Virus record (IMG/VR): IMGVR_UViG_2030936005_000025
Coordinates: 160,001 to 224,000 of that record
Direction: 5' to 3' (one strand)
Source: a virus
Lineage: Duplodnaviria > Caudoviricetes
DNA: 64,000 bases
Part shown: one piece after another, positions 1,200-44,180 of the stretch
Position numbering within the stretch: position 1 is the stretch's first letter
How the letters are laid out: each line of letters begins with the position of its first letter
The notes under the pieces: generated by a model
Told to the model about the DNA's origin: nothing
Databases searched by the model: none
Seen by the model: the letters and a program-made list of their open reading frames with translations, nothing else
Made by a program: the position numbers and the translations under genes

Positions 1200-2737
1200 T
1201 GGAAATAGCTCTCGATGTTAGAGAAGAAGTTAGAACCAGCAACTTGTGCCGCTTCACTGGTGCCCAGAATCGGACTGGTCGAGTTAATGGCAAAAGTCGG
1301 GAATGCACGAGTGATACCAACTTGTGCGCCGGTATCTTGCAGATCGAAACCTTGACTCAGGTTGCTGTCATTCACAAGCTGCAGATCGATAGTGGTGGTA
1401 CCGAACAGCTCGCCGCTGACGTTGAAACGGATCGGTGTCATCTGGTTGATGTTTAAACCATTCAGACGCGTAAAGATCTGAGTACGCAGTGCTTGGACAA
1501 ATGCTTCACAACGTTGACCCAACTGGAAGTCATCTTCCTGAATTGGAGATGGTGCATACGGCAGAATAACGATGTTATCCAGACCGCCGTCGCCACCGAA
1601 GTGATCACAGTTAGAGCCTTTGAAGTTAATGCCATTCAATCCATACTTCAGCATTAAATCAAGCATGTTTGCTTCAAGCTCAGATGCAATAACTTCCGCA
1701 TAGTTAGATGTGCCAAAAACTTCGGTGTTCTGAGTCAGATCGTCTACTTGGAAATCAGCAGCGTTCATGAAAGTCAGATCCAGGACATCGTCCAGATTGT
1801 TGAAAGCCATCATCAGGTCAGCAACAGAATAACCAGTGAAACCGCGAGACTGATGGATACCCAGCTGGTTCATCATTTCACGGAAGAACGGATCACGCAG
1901 TAACTGAGGTTCAGCTTGTTGAGCCTGATAACTGAGCACGTTCAGTTCACCGAACAGTCCATCAAACTGGGTACCCATTTCACCCATATCCATCTGGCTG
2001 TTTGCCATCAGTTTATTGGATTGGAAGTCGGTACCGGCTTTCAGGATATCAGACGCATAGTTAACCGGGTTAGTGTTTGCACGTTTAGATGCAATAACAC
2101 CTGCACGATCAATAGATGCGTTCGCTGGATTGACAACAGGTGACATACCGTCGAGCCCTTCATCTTCCATGCGTTCCAGAACACTGTCACGGCTCGCGCT
2201 TTCCAGACCATACTCGATAACGTCAGCCGGTCGGAGCGTCACAAGACGGTTGTTGTTCGAACCATCGTTAAACATGTAGTCAGTACGACCACCGATTTGA
2301 CGCTGAATGCTGGTTGGGTTTTCGATATCACCGAAGTTACTGGTAATCGTTTCCTGAGTCTTCCAGGACATGACCGGATGGAAGATCGCATCTGAACTTA
2401 ATCCGTCCAGCGTTTGGTTGTTGGAGATATACCCCAGCACGTTCATGTACTCAACCAGTACAGGACTGTCCTGAACAATGAGCTTGAGTAACATCAAGCC
2501 TTTGGATTCATTCCAGCCACCCTGGATAGAGGCATAGTCGGTTGCCTGAGCATTAAGGCCGCCAGACATGACGGCGGTATGCAGCAGTGTAGAACCTTTA
2601 ACACCACCATTATGATTCTCATACGTCAATTGATCGATCAGCTGACTGTTGATATCCATCGCTGGGTTACGAACAACCTGGTTATGATAATAGTTGGTGA
2701 GACCTGCTTTTGCACTGACTAACTGAATACCGCTCAT
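1196..2737 (-). CDS. picA: phiKZ gp69-like protein (putative PicA/Imp1 nuclear-import factor)
   Basis: 513 aa, directly after the gp68-like gene in the chimallivirus core block. Call rests mainly on synteny and size. Confidence 0.6.
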   Translation of the reverse strand: MSGIQLVSAKAGLTNYYHNQVVRNPAMDINSQLIDQLTYENHNGGVKGSTLLHTAVMSGGLNAQATDYASIQGGWNESKGLMLLKLIVQDSPVLVEYMNVLGYISNNQTLDGLSSDAIFHPVMSWKTQETITSNFGDIENPTSIQRQIGGRTDYMFNDGSNNNRLVTLRPADVIEYGLESASRDSVLERMEDEGLDGMSPVVNPANASIDRAGVIASKRANTNPVNYASDILKAGTDFQSNKLMANSQMDMGEMGTQFDGLFGELNVLSYQAQQAEPQLLRDPFFREMMNQLGIHQSRGFTGYSVADLMMAFNNLDDVLDLTFMNAADFQVDDLTQNTEVFGTSNYAEVIASELEANMLDLMLKYGLNGINFKGSNCDHFGGDGGLDNIVILPYAPSPIQEDDFQLGQRCEAFVQALRTQIFTRLNGLNINQMTPIRFNVSGELFGTTTIDLQLVNDSNLSQGFDLQDTGAQVGITRAFPTFAINSTSPILGTSEAAQVAGSNFFSNIESYFQ

Positions 2738-12159: not shown

Positions 12160-14088
12160 TTAGTACTGAGAGTACATGCCGTTAAAGCCACCGAAACCAG
12201 CAGCCTGTACAGACTGAGTGATCTGAGCAGTAATTGCATGGTTCAGGTAATCGTTACCGGTGTTCATGCTCCACATGGTCGCGGTGGTGGTACCAGACAG
12301 GGACAGAGTACCTGCAGTTGCCATTGCCTGCGCGAAGGTTGCGAAGAATGAGTTTTCCCACAGGAAGCGACGGTTCCAGCCATCCAGAATCACGTTTGCA
12401 CCGAACAGCTGGTTCAGACGGTTGTAGATGCTGTACTGACGGATCTTAACGTTGTCGCCACCCATAGAACCGTTGATCAGAGCTTGATACTCATTGATCG
12501 CAGATTCGTTCTGGCCGTAGTATGCATCCTGACGCAGGAACATACCATCAACTTCAGCCAGGTCAAACCACTTACCATCTTTACCTTGAGCGATACCGCT
12601 TGGCAGGATGATGTTGGTTTGTTTCAGGATGTCGTCACCGAAGGTCCACTCAGTGCGTGGGTTACGGTTCTGACCTTTGTTACCGTTCGCCTGCGCCAGC
12701 TCGCTGAACTTGCCGTTAGACAGCGCGTCGAGCATAGTGATCAGTGCACGGTGATAGGTAGAGCCAGCCGGTTTACCAACCAGAGACCACCAGAAGTCAG
12801 AGTTCGCAACGTCGCGAGTGAAGGTTGCCAGATCCAGAACGTAGACAGCCTGCGGAGCGATGTAAGTACCCAGCCAGTTGTTGACGATCTGTGCATTGGT
12901 GATGTTTTTCTCAGTGATGTACTGAGCGGTAGTGAATTGACCACCGACAGCCTGAACGATCTGAGACAGGTAGTGGTTGAAGTTACCGATGTTACCACGG
13001 TGACCCACTTCCTTACCACGGAATGCTTCTGACAGGTAACTGATGTGGTTCGCACCGATAGACGCGTACAGACCCAGCAGAGCAGTCAGCATAGAGCTGT
13101 TGTTGTTCAGGGTTTCACCAGGAACGGTCAGACCGGTAGAAACAACTGGTACCAGAGGACCAACGTTCATGCCAGGCTGACGAGCACGCGCCTGCTGGAA
13201 CTGGCTCTGAGACATCGCTTCCAGAGAAACGGTCATGTGAGCAGTTGCCACTGAACGGCTCTGAGAGCTGTTTGCAGACTGAGTACCGCCTTTGTTGGTG
13301 GTAGAGATTTTCGCCGCCAGGTTATACGGAGTTGGTACGCCATCGATGATCAGTTTGTTAACTGCTTCGATACGTGCAACCGCGGTGTCATCTTTACCGA
13401 ACAGTTTGCCATCTTTGAACGGGTTCGGGAATTCCACGCCGGCAACAGTCGCTTCCAGAGCCGCGATGTTGTACAGAGAGGTAGACCACTCTTTCAGGAT
13501 GCTGTTGCTGACATCGATAACCATGTTGTCCGCAGAGATCTGGTTTTTGATGTACGGTTCCAGGTTGCGAACGATCGGCGCCAGGATGATAACTTTGCTG
13601 GCGTTTTTGCCGTCAACGTAGGTGTACTGAGTTTTGATTTTCTCCAGCAGCTGTGGATCCATGAAGCCGGCAGCCGGTTTGGCGATTGCGCGAGCAGCTG
13701 GTTCGTTAGCCAGGTGGATAGATTCGGTCACTTCAGTAATACCGACTTTGTAGAACAGCACTGGCTGTACATAGACCGCGGTGCCGATGACAGTGTGCAG
13801 AGTCAGACCCGGCAGGTTTGGAGAAATGTCAGAAGTGATGGTGCGCACTTCTTTCGGCAGAGTCAGTTTCTGGATATCGCTGGCGGTGTTTTTGTTCAGC
13901 GTTTTGATGGTCTCTTCCAGAGACTTCATCACTTCGTTGACTTCCGCGATGTTGTTGGTAGAAGAGATCAGGTTCTGCTGACCCAGCAGAGCGAGTAACG
14001 GGTTGTTTGACATGTTGGTATTTTTACCTGCGTTGTTTGAAGAGTTGTTGCCAGAGTTGTCAGAAGAGTTGCGCTGATCAAGAGACAT
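12160..14088 (-). CDS. chmA: chimallin (phage nucleus shell protein)
   Basis: 642 aa immediately upstream of the nvRNAP beta-prime gene and near DNA polymerase, as in phiKZ gp50-54-55. GC-richer codon usage typical of a highly expressed gene; N/S-rich N-tail. Confidence 0.85.
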   Translation of the reverse strand: MSLDQRNSSDNSGNNSSNNAGKNTNMSNNPLLALLGQQNLISSTNNIAEVNEVMKSLEETIKTLNKNTASDIQKLTLPKEVRTITSDISPNLPGLTLHTVIGTAVYVQPVLFYKVGITEVTESIHLANEPAARAIAKPAAGFMDPQLLEKIKTQYTYVDGKNASKVIILAPIVRNLEPYIKNQISADNMVIDVSNSILKEWSTSLYNIAALEATVAGVEFPNPFKDGKLFGKDDTAVARIEAVNKLIIDGVPTPYNLAAKISTTNKGGTQSANSSQSRSVATAHMTVSLEAMSQSQFQQARARQPGMNVGPLVPVVSTGLTVPGETLNNNSSMLTALLGLYASIGANHISYLSEAFRGKEVGHRGNIGNFNHYLSQIVQAVGGQFTTAQYITEKNITNAQIVNNWLGTYIAPQAVYVLDLATFTRDVANSDFWWSLVGKPAGSTYHRALITMLDALSNGKFSELAQANGNKGQNRNPRTEWTFGDDILKQTNIILPSGIAQGKDGKWFDLAEVDGMFLRQDAYYGQNESAINEYQALINGSMGGDNVKIRQYSIYNRLNQLFGANVILDGWNRRFLWENSFFATFAQAMATAGTLSLSGTTTATMWSMNTGNDYLNHAITAQITQSVQAAGFGGFNGMYSQY

Positions 14089-14185: not shown

Positions 14186-14202
14186 ATAATATAGACTTCA
14201 AA
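14186..14202 (-). promoter_or_regulatory. early-type promoter of chmA
   Basis: Minus strand TTTGAAGTCTATATTAT. Confidence 0.6.
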
Positions 14203-14359
14203 AATTATAGGAACACGTTTTTTCACAATAAATCGTATGTATACTTAAAAAATAAACGTACGACTCCCGTGTATCCTTAAGGATGACCCTTAAGAATTAG
14301 TTTACATAATATAGAAATGTTACGTAATTTTTTACGGAGCATCTCATGAGGTTTAACCA

Positions 14360-38218: not shown

Positions 38219-38815
38219 TTAGACCTCAAAGAGTTTATCCATCTTTACTTCATTACCATTTTCGTCAGTGACTTTGTGAATCAAGCCATTCAAGATTGAG
38301 CCACGATAAGGGTGTTGAATGCCACCTTTGGAGATCAATACTTCAAAGTCAGCATCATAGGTCTTAGTGTCACGATAGTTGTACAGCACTTTGTAGCCGT
38401 AGCAGTAATCCAAATTGTTACCACTTTCACTACAATAAAATGACAAGGTAGATTTGATAAGCTCTGCAGCCTCAAATCCCAGTGCTGTATCAATGACGCG
38501 CGCAATCAGATTATGGTGACTACTGATACGGTCATTGAGCTTGAAGTAAAAGTCGTGAGGACGTAACTCAGCAATGATATAATCAGCAATCCCTTCTTTA
38601 GGACGGGTAAACACAAACTGACCATCCTGCTCAATACCAAAGATATGAAGACGGATGGTACGATTAATAATAAATTCAATAGCAATAATGTCCAGACCTC
38701 TGGCTCCTTGATTACGAAGCTTGGCTGGATTAACGATATAACTCTTTACCGATTGAACACTAAAGTGATCGTTCAGTAAATCTGTGAAATAAGTACGTAC
38801 GGTTTCAATATTCAT
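38219..38815 (-). CDS. hypothetical protein
   Basis: First ORF after the promoter at 38861. Confidence 0.75.
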   Translation of the reverse strand: MNIETVRTYFTDLLNDHFSVQSVKSYIVNPAKLRNQGARGLDIIAIEFIINRTIRLHIFGIEQDGQFVFTRPKEGIADYIIAELRPHDFYFKLNDRISSHHNLIARVIDTALGFEAAELIKSTLSFYCSESGNNLDYCYGYKVLYNYRDTKTYDADFEVLISKGGIQHPYRGSILNGLIHKVTDENGNEVKMDKLFEV

Positions 38816-38860
38816 CTTTTCAATCCTAAGGTTAAAAACTAAGTGTGGTTCTTCACTCTA

Positions 38861-38877
38861 ATAATATCTATTTAATT
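38861..38877 (-). promoter_or_regulatory. early-type promoter motif
   Basis: Minus strand AATTAAATAGATATTAT. Confidence 0.45.
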
Positions 38878-38934
38878 AATTATGAGAGATCTTTATTTTA
38901 TGTAAGAAACGATGTCATTTTATTTTCATTTCGC

Positions 38935-39421
38935 TATGGGTATTTCTGAATGCCCATAATGAAGTGTGACCGCCATCGTGCTTCTTGGTAGTTTTGCCAT
39001 TCTTTATTGCTATCTACAAAGTGGGGAGGCGGCCTTCCTCCCCCTTTCCTTAAGTACATTTGATTGGGTGTATTTAAGGAAAGCATGGGGGCATGCTTTT
39101 ATTCTGTTGTAAGTCGTGGTTGTTAAAGGACCCAGAGGGTTGGTTTGACTTTTCCTCTTCCCTTTGGGTTCTTTATTTAACATTTCTCTATGTTTGTTTA
39201 TTGAGCTGACATAGAGAAGTGCGCGCCGGTACTTCTTATCCATGTTCTTGCTTCGCCAGATGGTTTGGCAGAGGGGCTTTAGGTAGCCCCTTCTTTCTAT
39301 GTGTATTTACGAGTATACATAGAAAGCGTACCTAGCTGGTATCGCCCATCCCGCTAGTTTTTCTATCGCCTTCTTTTCTAGCCGGGATTACTTAGCCCTG
39401 TGGGGAGATTTTCTACAGGGC
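38935..39421 (+). ncRNA. candidate structured RNA: tandem array of about 10 hairpins
   Basis: Consecutive 7-16 bp stems whose imperfect pairs are G-U on the plus strand, e.g. 39124-39139/39161-39176 and 39181-39193/39209-39221. Confidence 0.6.
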
Positions 39422-39440
39422 GCTTTTCAATGGAGAACCC

Positions 39441-39740
39441 ATGTCACAAGTTGATTTGAACACCCCTGCTTTCGTTAGCTATTCAAAGGCTAACGAGTCT
39501 ATGCTTTCCTCATTGAAAAGCAAGAAATCTGTTAAGTTCGCCCGTAAAGGCTGGAACGGTAAACAACTCCACGTCCAGGTACACGGATCCATTCCAACCA
39601 GTCAGGTTGATTTGGAGAATGGCGAGAACGCCTACATCGAACCTTTCTTTGTTATCGTTAACAAAGCAAACAGCCGCGTGAACATCTGGGTACCATCGGT
39701 CTCAGATCTGCAAGCTGAAGACTGGTACGAAGTTCAGTAA
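39441..39740 (+). CDS. tad2: Tad2-like (DUF2829) anti-Thoeris sponge
   Basis: Signatures RKGWNGK and WVPSVSDLQAEDW; 99 aa; GGAGA RBS. Confidence 0.85.
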   Translation: MSQVDLNTPAFVSYSKANESMLSSLKSKKSVKFARKGWNGKQLHVQVHGSIPTSQVDLENGENAYIEPFFVIVNKANSRVNIWVPSVSDLQAEDWYEVQ

Positions 39741-39783
39741 TTTATTAACGCAGAGTTTATACTCTGTTAAAGAATTCCAGCCG

Positions 39784-39860
39784 GAGAGTGTAGCACATTA
39801 GCTAAGTGCATCCGGTATCTCTCCCGAGCATACATGTTCCAGTCGGCGGGAAGAGATCCA
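39784..39860 (+). pseudogene. possible decayed tRNA
   Basis: TA-GCAC-9nt-GTGC-A D arm and a 5-bp/7-nt anticodon-like arm, but broken T and acceptor stems. Confidence 0.3.
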
Positions 39861-39978
39861 GAATTGACAGGACCACAATTTGGTTGATCAATCAATAGAT
39901 AAGTTTTATGTCAAGATAAGAACAGTCCTTTCACAGATTCTGAAAGTACACCAACTGTATCTAATCGAGATTAAATAG

Positions 39979-40203
39979 ATGAAACTTTATCTTATTGAGC
40001 GCACAGACAAAGTCTGCATATACGACAATTATTTTGCTACAGTGGTAGCAGCGCCCACAGAGGAAAGGTCACGTGAGTTAGCGTTGGCTTTATTCGCTCG
40101 AGGAGATGACTCGTCTTCGGATGAGTTCCTTGACGTAAGCACGATCGCTATAAACGCCCTTGTCCCTGAGGGTATAATCTTATCGGACTATAATGCCGGA
40201 TAA
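39979..40203 (+). CDS. small hypothetical protein
   Basis: MKLYLIER...VVAAPTEERSRELA, a pattern common in small phage proteins. Confidence 0.7.
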   Translation: MKLYLIERTDKVCIYDNYFATVVAAPTEERSRELALALFARGDDSSSDEFLDVSTIAINALVPEGIILSDYNAG

Positions 40204-40220
40204 GAGTAATGACCGCCTGG

Positions 40221-40313
40221 AATTCCCGGAACCTCAAATTAAATTTGAGATCGAAAGAACATTGACGCTGGTTGCGAGTTGATAACGAAACCAAAGTCAT
40301 GGCTCCGGGAATT
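40221..40313 (+). ncRNA. candidate small structured RNA
   Basis: 10-bp closing helix aattcccgga/tccgggaatt enclosing two inner stems. Confidence 0.4.
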
Positions 40314-40412
40314 ACTGATTTAAATATCGAAGGCGGTAATATTATTTAGAGTCTATCTTATTTATCTTTTGACTGAACTTTCTCAGTCACTAAAAATATA
40401 AAGGTAAGTAAA

Positions 40413-40895
40413 ATGGATTCTATTGGGATGTTACTGTTGGCATTAATTGCAGGTGTCGGTATTGGTTCTGCGATCACTATTTTGATTCAAAAGCGTCGCG
40501 ACGCTGGAACGGTTGGTACCAATCCAGAACTGCACGCGTATATCACTTCTGCCGAGGCTAAACTTCAGGCTCAAGTTGATGAGCTTAAAACAAAACTCCT
40601 ACCTGCCGATACACAAGAGAAACTCAAAGGTATTGGCGATGGGTTACTGTCAACGATCAAAGATAAACTGCTTGACGATCTCTCTGGTTTGAGACTCAAT
40701 GGCGAATCACATCTTCAGCAAATCGAAGATATCGTGAAACGCATTGAAGGTCTGACTGAAGCTGAACTCGTCAAACTGCATCTGGAAAAAGAAACACCGC
40801 CCGCTGATCCAGTGTTGGCTGTCTCTCCTTCCGATCCACAGACAGTAGTCTCTTCTGAACCAGCGATTCCTGCTGATCAGAATAAAGTCGTTTAA
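40413..40895 (+). CDS. membrane-anchored coiled-coil protein
   Basis: N-terminal TM, helical body, P-rich tail. Confidence 0.75.
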   Translation: MDSIGMLLLALIAGVGIGSAITILIQKRRDAGTVGTNPELHAYITSAEAKLQAQVDELKTKLLPADTQEKLKGIGDGLLSTIKDKLLDDLSGLRLNGESHLQQIEDIVKRIEGLTEAELVKLHLEKETPPADPVLAVSPSDPQTVVSSEPAIPADQNKVV

Positions 40896-40901
40896 GTATT
40901 T

Positions 40902-40977
40902 GCTTCCATAGTTCAGTCGGCAGAACGGTCGCCTGTTAAGCGATATGTCGCAGGTTCGAGTCCTGCTGGAAGCGCCA
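40902..40977 (+). tRNA. tRNA-Asn(GTT)
   Basis: Acceptor GCTTCCA/TGGAAGC, anticodon loop CTGTTAA, T-loop TTCGAGT, encoded CCA. Confidence 0.93.
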
Positions 40978-41003
40978 ATTTACATTCACATCTGCCAGTT
41001 ACT

Positions 41004-41107
41004 GCGGTCGTGTCTTCAGAGGCACCGTAAATGTATGATAGTGGATGATTAGTTTCTACCACTGGATATCTTTACAATAGTTAGGTTAAATCCCTAAGGC
41101 CGCGCCA
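41004..41107 (+). ncRNA. tRNA-like RNA 1 with extended anticodon arm
   Basis: GCGGTC/GGCCGC acceptor plus G-CCA; T arm TTAGG-TTAAATC-CCTAA; D-like stem GTGTC/GGCAC; ~49-nt central arm. Confidence 0.6.
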
Positions 41108-43290: not shown

Positions 43291-43299
43291 GTATATTAT
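43283..43299 (+). promoter_or_regulatory. putative promoter of the large ncRNA
   Basis: TCCATAAGTATATTAT has the same spacing as TTCAGACCTATATTAC. Confidence 0.45.
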
Positions 43300-43309
43300 G
43301 TAATTCAAT

Positions 43310-44157
43310 CGAGTGTAACTGATCGCTGTTCTGCGGAATAGTATGGTTTCATCACCCCGTTATATTCGACTGTAAGACCCTCGTTATCCAGGTGTGGGTA
43401 CATAACGAGGGCAGTGTCCGGTGGGTTGCACTACCGGACTAAATCCAAGAGTGAACGGCGGCTTAAGCCCGCTACTGTAAGTAGCTCTTGGTTGGGTGAT
43501 ATTATGTACTTTCACTGCATAATGTCCTCTGGCGGTGGTTGGACTTTTGGCGTTCTTCGCCATTGTCTGACAGATCACCGCACCCCTTTGTACCAGTGGC
43601 TGATATCCAAGTAGAGCTTTAATTATACCTGACGGATAGCGCTCACAGTGTTTCAACCATTGGTACATCCTCTTGAGGATCTTGAACGAAAACCGTAGGG
43701 TAACCGCCGAGCACATTGCGTTGCATTCAAGGCGGCTTAAGCAGGGGACTAGGTAGTCTTCCTGGGTGATATCAAGATCCTCAAACCTACTACTCTCCGT
43801 GATATGGAGTAGACACCCCGTGGTGGGGGCATCGTAACCATCTGATGAGTCCGCGATGAGAAATAAAGAGACGAAACGGGTTCTGTCGTTCGGAGACTCC
43901 AACTCCTGACAGATCCGTCATGAATCGCTCTGCCTTAACTGTGAGGAGCAGCCTCAATCTACGATTCTAGAGGAACAGCAGCGTTACTGAAAGATCCACG
44001 GCAAATGGATCGAAGCAGATAACAAACAGTCCGCTCCCTTTGCCAGGGGAGAAGTTGTTAAAACCAAGAGGTGTAGACAGCCTTTAGATCACCGTGGTAG
44101 TAAAATGGGGTTGCTCCCAGAGTAGCTATCAGAAAGTGGTCTTTAGAGTGGCTATAC
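43310..44157 (+). ncRNA. large (~850 nt) structured RNA containing a hammerhead ribozyme
   Basis: No credible ORF; many nested helices (43378-87/43402-11, 43590-99/43657-66, 43674-85/43772-83, 43325-31/43973-79); G-U pairs favour the plus strand. Confidence 0.72.
43827..43935 (+). ncRNA. type I hammerhead ribozyme
   Basis: CTGATGA 43842-48, stem II GTC/GAC, GAAA 43873-76, long stem III, GTC triplet 43917-19, stem I CAT/ATG extended by GGCA/TGCC. Confidence 0.8.
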
Positions 44158-44180
44158 AAAAAAAAATAACAGATCGAGAT

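Follow-up and report, generated by a model that had tools for sequence, protein, structure and literature searches.

The divergent gap between two genes of a large phage genome is filled almost from end to end with hairpins, and the question raised by this locus is whether they belong to the DNA, to the leader of the following gene, or to an RNA gene in its own right. The window analysed here is a stretch of 64,000 nucleotides (nt), bases 160001-224000 of the complete 264-kb IMG/VR virus record IMGVR_UViG_2030936005_000025, and all positions below are those of the window. The hairpin array occupies the gap between a 198-aa open reading frame (ORF) (38219-38815, minus strand) and a 99-aa Tad2-like gene (39441-39740, plus strand). 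A first-pass annotation, made from the letters alone, had described at least ten back-to-back stems and had proposed either a standalone non-coding RNA (ncRNA) or a regulatory leader controlling Tad2. In our reading, to which a probability of about 0.6 is given, 38902-39428 on the plus strand is the gene for a stand-alone, highly structured ncRNA of ~525 nt, which forms a new family of OBP-like jumbo phages and has a multivalent decoy or scaffold as its proposed mechanism. The locus, conserved in 14 phages, is plus-stranded, modular, structured, non-coding and specific to one place in the genome; the array would form a discrete, stable transcript.

The plus strand of 38900-39440 was folded with RNAfold, a check suggested by the first-pass annotation, and gave -212.8 kcal/mol versus -149.2 +/- 6.5 kcal/mol for 100 shuffles (z -9.75), whereas the minus strand of the array folded less well (z -4.99). 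The stems that had been named by eye were all present in the RNAfold structures (38935-58, within a hairpin of 38924-38969; 39044-39083, 39083-39096, 39124-39176, 39181-39221, 39271-39292, 39293-39326, and 39395-39421), and with additional stems at 39023-39043, 39249-39270, 39326-39345, and 39348-39388 the total was 12-14 stems in ~525 nt. The earlier remark that imperfect pairs are mostly G-U on the plus strand agreed with the local fold of 38902-39428, in which 32 of 170 pairs were G-U, versus 3 of 144 on the reverse complement. Clustered regularly interspaced short palindromic repeats (CRISPR) had been excluded, and rightly so: the repeat search gave a single 13-nt family of two copies and no other direct repeats, and near-identical, regularly spaced direct repeats with unique spacers were not found, the modules described below being alike in structure and not in sequence. 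The accompanying statement that stems and loops differ in sequence holds as far as CRISPR-like repeats are concerned, but most of the stems belong to a repeated two-hairpin module with a common consensus.

This module consists of a G+C-rich hairpin (H1), followed after 0-1 base by an A+U-rich hairpin (H2) with the consensus 5' CUUUCUUUAUG..UUU-loop-GAG..CAUAAAGAAAG 3', in which the base of the stem (CUUUCUUUAUG / CAUAAAGAAAG) is conserved and the apical loop is variable. H2 was recovered by RNAalifold from a plain MAFFT alignment of 31 modules, with pair-keeping changes on both sides at 11 of the 16 pairs and with 93.5% of the cells of H2 in pairs. This alignment had a covariation score of 0.545, versus 0.263 for column shuffles (0 of 500 reached 0.545) and at most 0.245 when the partners were slid by 1-3 columns. 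A covariance model (R1) was built from the same alignment and detected 57 modules at E < 3e-5 in 14 loci, all on the RNA strand; in the R1 alignment of these modules, which is fitted to the model, 89.2% of cells were paired and 20 of 23 pairs were compensatory (score 0.656 versus 0.258). Covariation among homologues, looked for at the suggestion of the first-pass annotation, was accordingly found in both module alignments. Below the variable loop lies a near-invariant U.G / U-A / U.G step (pair 74:89 was U.G in 38 of 57 modules, and pair 75:88 was U-A in 56 of 57). Such U.G steps would be mismatches on the other strand, and in agreement with this, minus-strand matches to R1 stayed at or below 27 bits, versus up to 64.7 bits for those on the plus strand. 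The compensatory changes and the strand asymmetry together uphold the selection at the plus-strand RNA level that had been proposed. A likeness of the 5' strand of H2 to the rrn boxA was considered and dropped, being a short U-rich match to a strand that is base-paired here.

The elements of the locus in the window, with the neighbouring genes at the end, are as follows (R1 scores in bits).
38902-39428, plus strand: whole predicted ncRNA, ~525 nt (fold, conservation, no Rfam family, no conserved ORF).
38893-38906, plus strand: promoter-like block of the RNA, TTTATTTTATGTAA (conservation).
38924-38969, plus strand: 5' hairpin of H2 type, a degenerate 'module 0' (RNAfold; weak R1 match at 38898-38969, 25.5 bits).
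38970-39018, plus strand: conserved, mostly single-stranded linker, GCCAUCGUGCUUC ... UUGCCAUU ... AAAG (alignment).
39019-39087, plus strand: module 1, with H1 at 39023-39043 (GGGGAGG/CCUCCCC) abutting H2 at 39044-39083 (R1 53.3 bits, E 2.3e-10).
39083-39103, plus strand: small hairpin GCAUGGGGGCAUGC followed by UUUUAUU, terminator-like (terminator scan, RNAfold).
39124-39224, plus strand: module 2, a 16-bp hairpin at 39124-39176 followed by H2 at 39181-39221 (R1 at 39158-39224, 37.8 bits).
39249-39270, plus strand: hairpin GCCAGAUGGUUUGGC (RNAfold).
39269-39332, plus strand: module 3, the best conserved, with H1 at 39271-39292 and H2 at 39293-39326 (R1 46.9 bits).
39326-39388, plus strand: two 3' hairpins, GCGUACC..GGUAUCGC and 39348-39388 (RNAfold).
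39395-39428, plus strand: intrinsic-terminator-like hairpin of 12 pairs with GCUUUUC (terminator scan).
39431-39740, plus strand: Shine-Dalgarno sequence GGAGAA (39431-39436) and Tad2-like gene (39441-39740; PF11195, E 6.6e-15).
38850-38885, minus strand: early-type promoter of the 198-aa gene, core AGATATTAT at 38860-38868 (genome-wide motif match).
38219-38815, minus strand: 198-aa gene, divergent from the RNA in every RNA-bearing phage (tblastn, alignment A5).

Individual elements could be followed among the relatives. Orthologues have a full module where the window has the degenerate module 0. The linker is invariant in the window, in an additional IMG/VR relative (L005), and in Erwinia phage AH04, and its motifs recur across the 14 phages (alignment A8). 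Compensatory changes from C-G to U-A distinguish module 1 from its counterparts in L005 and AH04; the stem of the GCAUGGGGGCAUGC hairpin is invariant between the window and L005 and carries a single G-U substitution in AH04. In module 2, CCCAGAG/CUUUGGG of the window becomes CCUAGAG/CUCUAGG in AH04, and in the hairpin at 39249-39270, GCCAG/UUGGC of the window becomes GUCAG/UUGAC in L005, a compensatory change. Module 3 is 85% identical over 75 nt to that of Kosakonia phage Kc263, and the fifth pair of its H1 is C-G, U-A, and A-U across three close relatives. At the two 3' hairpins the order of the elements is the same in Kc263, N1M2, Yubaba, pEt-SU, Survivor, and OBP (alignment A7).

Searches with R1 were then used for the distribution of the module. 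In the window's own 264-kb genome, matches at E < 0.01 were obtained at 38898-38969 (weak), 39019-39087, 39158-39224, and 39269-39332 and nowhere else, and in the whole genomes of AH04, Kc263, N1M2, ZPAH34, and PS1 they were likewise confined to one locus; the OBP genome had six matches at the locus and a seventh 1.1 kb downstream. No matches were obtained in phiKZ, EL, 201phi2-1, and SPN3US. As a negative control, 663 kb of contigs with an H2-like palindrome, the matches listed by a loose IMG/VR pattern, gave one match (E 1e-4), and a further 386 kb of contigs selected by an IMG/VR promoter-block pattern gave only OBP and pEt-SU, which were also the only true members recovered by that pattern; in all, 1.05 Mb of unrelated viral DNA contained one R1 match at E <= 0.001. 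An IMG/VR pattern search with the exact H2 of module 3 returned L005 only. Because R1 matches are locus-specific, the module is regarded as a building block of one RNA and not as a general terminator or a common palindrome.

For the comparison among phages, the locus was anchored on the 198-aa gene, for which tblastn gave matches in 25 phage records, and the divergent gap was then read in 13 other phages. The nearest named relative of the window genome is Erwinia phage AH04; remoter ones are Kosakonia phage Kc263, Klebsiella phage N1M2, Edwardsiella phage pEt-SU, Pantoea phage Survivor, and Pseudomonas phage OBP, and Serratia phages Yubaba and Sureiya, Shewanella phage SXP01, and several Aeromonas jumbo phages also belong to the relatives. 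In the window genome, one ORF of great length weakly matches an RNA polymerase beta domain; because of this ORF and of the early promoter consensus of N1M2 and OBP, it is regarded as an OBP-like jumbo phage. The locus was found in 14 such phages, with hosts in Erwinia, Pantoea, Kosakonia, Klebsiella, Serratia, Edwardsiella, Pseudomonas, Shewanella, and Aeromonas, and the carriers of the RNA family number ~14-25 genomes, to which IMG/VR contributed a single one, L005.

In all 14 phages the non-coding gap measures 0.6-1.0 kb, and of the two strands, the one that leads away from the 198-aa gene gives the better fold. The order of the elements is common to them: a promoter block, a first hairpin pair, a mostly unpaired linker (GCCAUCGUGCUUC, UUGCCAUU), tandem modules (3-6 per phage), one or two hairpins, and usually a G+C hairpin with a U run, giving an RNA of ~525 nt in the window and of up to ~950 nt in OBP. 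The window itself carries at least three tandem R1 modules on one strand (three strong, one weak), the ATAATATC...TATATTATGTRA block, and the divergent gene with the FTRPKEGI motif, the features by which a member of the new family is recognised. Between the window and L005 the gap aligns over its full length at 76.5% nucleotide identity; the flanking genes are 66.5% (198-aa gene) and 78% (Tad2-like gene) identical, with 41-53% at their third codon positions, and since the gap exceeds the third codon positions of its neighbours, it is under purifying selection. With AH04 the gap aligns except for the last ~100 nt, which are missing there (66% identity globally, 74-89% in local BLAST blocks). 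In several relatives the linker ahead of module 1 contains a pyrimidine motif of CCUCC type (e.g., L013 ~2150-2165, minus strand; L003 ~1425-1440); that of SXP01, ACCUCCUUA, resembles the 3' end of 16S rRNA, and the window has at most a weak form of the motif (CUAUCUAC).

The conserved gap is not a coding region. An antisense ORF of 77 aa, whose conservation had been set beforehand as a possible refutation of an RNA, is not kept: it is 35 aa long in L005, and AH04 has a 54-aa ORF of other extent. The plus-strand ORFs of 38-48 aa are not conserved in L005 and AH04 either. Two small annotated ORFs lying antisense within the RNA locus, AH04_23 (L001:3095-3265) and OBP_015 (L011:1601-1732), are not conserved and look like annotation errors. 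No Rfam family was assigned to the RNA when the whole window was searched at the gathering score and 38700-41100 at E up to 5, the only matches being tRNA and chance-level ones (AniS, E 0.11); none of the ribozyme models of Rfam matched the hairpin RNA, and no paper describing it was found in the literature.

The boundaries of the RNA were predicted from motifs. ATATTAT occurs in 42 copies genome-wide, ~20 of which fit cAGATATTATyannGTGTA and lie 40-50 nt upstream of ORFs. The cAGATATTATyannGTGTA motif is identical with the early promoter consensus of N1M2 (31 sites) and OBP and is related to TATATTAC of phiKZ (PMC7058600). On the RNA side, a block ATAATATC-N-AATGGAAC-N-TATATTATGTRA is kept in 14 of 14 phages; it is a TATATTATGTAA variant, sharing the ATATTAT core of the early promoters of the clade, and reads TTTATTTTATGTAA in the window. 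A closely related motif (TATTGTATGTAAC in ZPAH34, GGTATGTAAC in CF8) is located ~10-12 nt upstream of tRNA-Leu, a placement that recalls the phiKZ late promoter T(-3)ATG(+1) (PMC7598289). Because of this spacing, transcription probably starts at or just after TATG, which would place the 5' end of the RNA near 38902-38906. All four genomic copies of the 10-mer T[AT]TTATGT[AG]A lie within the intergenic 6% of the genome, and this placement and its conservation alone argue for a probable function of the 10-mer. One copy, at 43294, stands where the genome's other large ncRNA (~43300-44158) begins, and the TATATTATGTAA type is regarded as a putative promoter type for stable RNA genes in the clade.

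The remaining copies of the 10-mer are at 14302 and 15505 (both minus strand, intergenic), one of them ~210 nt upstream of a 642-aa gene starting at 14088, near an ordinary early-type promoter at 14186. The other large ncRNA has a second ATATTATGT at 43499, ~200 nt past its first. Most relatives of the window have, ~100 nt from the 5' end of the RNA, a hairpin with a second motif of the (A)GATATTATGT(A/C) type (AGATATTATGC in Kc263, GGATATGTTATGTAA in OBP; hairpins at L003:1292-1322, L006:2477-2504, L002:1533-1560, and L011:1445-1475). This motif, possibly a second promoter, is missing from the window, L005, and AH04.

The 3' end of the RNA is most likely formed by the 12-pair hairpin at 39395-39421 with its GCUUUUC tail. 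A G+C hairpin with a U run also ends the RNA in Kc263, N1M2, Yubaba, OBP, pEt-SU, Survivor, and PS1; AH04 and SXP01 lack it. The terminator scan gave 8 terminator-like sites in the array versus 1.8 expected, H1 with CUUUCUUU itself being scored as terminator-like; none of the other gene ends in seven whole genomes has the module, the array lies in a divergent gap, and 39395-39428 looks like the sole candidate for a working terminator of the array.

It was then considered whether the array is a long structured 5' leader that controls or stabilises the Tad2-like mRNA by attenuation, by protection of the 5' end, or by masking of the ribosome-binding site. The Tad2-like gene lies 3' of the RNA, directly following it, in 10 of the 14 phages, and in the window ~12 nt with a GGAGAA ribosome-binding site separate the tail of the terminator from its start codon. 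No promoter motif was found between the terminator and the Tad2 start in the window or its relatives, so Tad2 is probably made by read-through from the RNA promoter, and in AH04 and SXP01, which are without the terminator, Tad2 is fused to the RNA. In the global fold of the window, a helix UUCUUUAUUG / CAAUGGAGAA (39000-39009 with 39428-39437) would mask the Shine-Dalgarno sequence of Tad2 and close the module array into one domain. This candidate helix was rejected: it is not conserved in L005 and AH04 (alignment A1). Furthermore, four Aeromonas phages (ZPAH34, CF8, PS1, and pAEv1810) have the RNA, its terminator, a fresh promoter of the same type, and tRNAs, which directly follow the RNA in ZPAH34, CF8, and PS1, but no Tad2; because these phages keep the RNA without Tad2, it is more than a leader of Tad2. 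A leader requires neither 3-6 sequence-conserved modules nor a length of 0.5-1 kb, and the promoter type is shared with the other large ncRNA, a closely related motif preceding a tRNA gene in ZPAH34. A riboswitch or other known leader is not indicated either, there being no Rfam match and no Tad2 in 4 of 14 phages. A leader as the whole explanation is thus quite unlikely in our judgement. Of the alternatives in the first-pass annotation, the standalone ncRNA is supported by its own conserved promoter block and terminator, the lack of a conserved ORF, and the Aeromonas phages; the regulatory leader survives in part, in that a separate promoter for Tad2 is lacking and the terminator is missing in AH04 and SXP01, but the RNA is conserved independently of Tad2.

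For the function of the stand-alone RNA, a multivalent sponge, decoy, or scaffold for a hairpin- or double-stranded RNA (dsRNA)-binding protein of host or phage is tentatively suggested, at somewhat less than even odds, because the tandem helices are conserved in sequence, their copy number varies from 3 to 6 among relatives, and the apical loops are unconstrained. In this mechanism, the RNA would be transcribed from the TATATTATGTAA-type promoter, starting a few bases past the block, and the transcript would end at the intrinsic terminator, the Tad2-like gene being expressed by read-through only; the repeated helices would then act as equivalent binding sites for a hairpin- or dsRNA-binding protein during infection. 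A narrower version, which we consider unlikely, is a counter-defence or host-takeover decoy that soaks up a host protein recognising hairpins or dsRNA (an RNA-sensing immune enzyme, an RNase, or an RNA chaperone) and is co-expressed with the Tad2 signal sponge. If this were true, one transcription unit would deliver an RNA sponge together with a protein sponge.

Several points weigh against the stand-alone, multivalent RNA. The start, end, abundance, and timing of the transcript are all deduced from motifs; the promoter copy of the window departs from the consensus (ATTTTAT, not ATATTAT), and the four copies of T[AT]TTATGT[AG]A in 264 kb are about the chance number. The pair counts of the R1 alignment lean toward structure, so that the MAFFT numbers are the cleaner test, and the modules are paralogues and orthologues whose cells are not independent, so that pair counts overstate the number of independent events. 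No binding partner is pointed to, the adjoining 198-aa protein having no fold or family match. Finally, conserved helices with apical loops that are not conserved also fit a purely architectural RNA.

Such an RNA-only architectural or catalytic particle, of the type of GOLLD and ROOL, would use the stacked hairpin pairs to build a tertiary or multimeric assembly and not as protein sites. The RNA is large, phage-encoded, and ORF-less and lies near tRNA genes and other structured RNAs, and the direct H1/H2 junction suggests coaxial stacking; GOLLD and ROOL occur in a like genomic context (PMC5737381) and form RNA-only complexes (bioRxiv 10.1101/2024.12.08.627333). Neither model matched the hairpin RNA, however, variation between 3 and 6 modules is hardly tolerable for a single intricate fold, and the loops are variable, with no conserved loop-loop or pseudoknot partner seen. 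One intricate tertiary fold accounts less well for this anatomy, and a particle of this kind is judged improbable.

Small hairpin RNAs, one per module, might arise from a longer precursor through cleavage by RNase III, RNase E, or a phage nuclease or through premature termination, but this is very unlikely. H1 with CUUUCUUU is terminator-like at 39023-39043 and 39271-39292, and a stacked H1 and H2 amount to about two helix turns; RNase III accepts about two turns of helix. The strong covariation of H2, however, implies that the mature RNA needs the sequence that follows each H1 U-tract, and no processing signal was identified. A DNA-level element (an origin, a cruciform, or protein-binding palindromes) or a pile of terminators at the strand switch, to which the position in the divergent gap of two transcription units and the excess of terminator-like sites might point, is largely refuted by the strand asymmetry and has a negligible share in our estimate, as the 19% of pairs that are G-U would turn into A.C mismatches in the complement, R1 reaches up to 64 bits on the plus strand versus at most 27 on the minus strand, diverging transcription needs no terminators, and the module is found at no other gene end in seven genomes.

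The neighbours of the RNA were also inspected. The 198-aa protein has an invariant FTRPKEGI motif (alignment A5) and adjoins the RNA in 14 of 14 phages despite identity down to 23-30%. It was assigned to no Pfam family, PHROG family, or Atlas lead, its AlphaFold2 model (predicted local distance difference test score, 68.5) had no fold match in the PDB, and an IMG/VR search with the single 198-aa protein gave no matches. Downstream, a tRNA-Asn is located 1.5 kb from the hairpin RNA in the window. Among the small ORFs 3' of Tad2, 39741-39978 and 40204-40412 are further gene-free stretches (238 and 209 nt) with hairpins, and an early-type promoter at 40339 (plus strand) lies 74 nt upstream of a 160-aa ORF that precedes the tRNA-Asn. 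Extra R1 matches of 24-33 bits were obtained 3' of the Tad2-like gene in OBP (L011:3182-3237, plus strand), SXP01 (L013:1009-1080, minus strand), and Kc263 (L002:3060-3123, plus strand), directly preceding the tRNA-Asn in OBP and Kc263, and suggest that another module-bearing RNA lies there; the window gave none. N1M2_258 (L003:1929-2168), annotated as 'methionine--tRNA ligase', is a 79-aa Tad2-like protein (PF11195, E 1.9e-17), an apparent annotation error.

Jumbo phages, both nucleus-forming and related ones, have been studied almost entirely via their proteins. Here, an RNA is conserved across at least nine host genera while the flanking proteins have diverged to <30% identity, and it provides a testable candidate for RNA-level function early in infection. 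The 57 module instances with strong covariation are ready for a public RNA family model. For annotation, the gap is not empty, small ORFs annotated inside the RNA locus are probably spurious, and the Tad2-like anti-Thoeris gene of these phages would depend on read-through of the RNA gene.

Among known RNAs, the closest in kind are GOLLD (RF01998) and ROOL (RF03087), large RNAs of phages and prophages that are often found beside tRNA genes and whose function is unknown (PMC5737381). Like them, the hairpin RNA is several hundred nucleotides long, heavily structured, ORF-less, phage-borne, and near tRNA genes. Unlike them, it is a tandem array of one two-hairpin module without a multistem-junction or pseudoknot core, has no match to RF01998 or RF03087 at the gathering score or at E up to 5, and is found in lytic OBP-like jumbo phages of Gammaproteobacteria. 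With the CsrB, RsmY, and RsmZ sponges it shares tandem, similar stem-loops in variable number (3-6) and an intrinsic terminator; it differs from them in having no GGA in its loops, as read from the folds, and no Csr or Rsm match in Rfam, in conserving helices and not loops, and in being phage-encoded.

The stable RNAs C and D of phage T4 (rnaC and rnaD), whose function is unknown, are encoded in the phage tRNA gene cluster and are ~120-140 nt long and tRNA-shaped. By description, on which this comparison was made, they sit with phage tRNA genes as the hairpin RNA does, whereas the latter is 0.5-1 kb long and modular. The other large ncRNA of the window (~43300-44158) differs in that R1 finds no module there; it belongs to the same plus-strand 'RNA island' and the same phage clade and has the same promoter 10-mer at its start (43294). 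The hairpin RNA is filed as a newly recognised family within a known kind, the large structured phage RNAs of unknown function.

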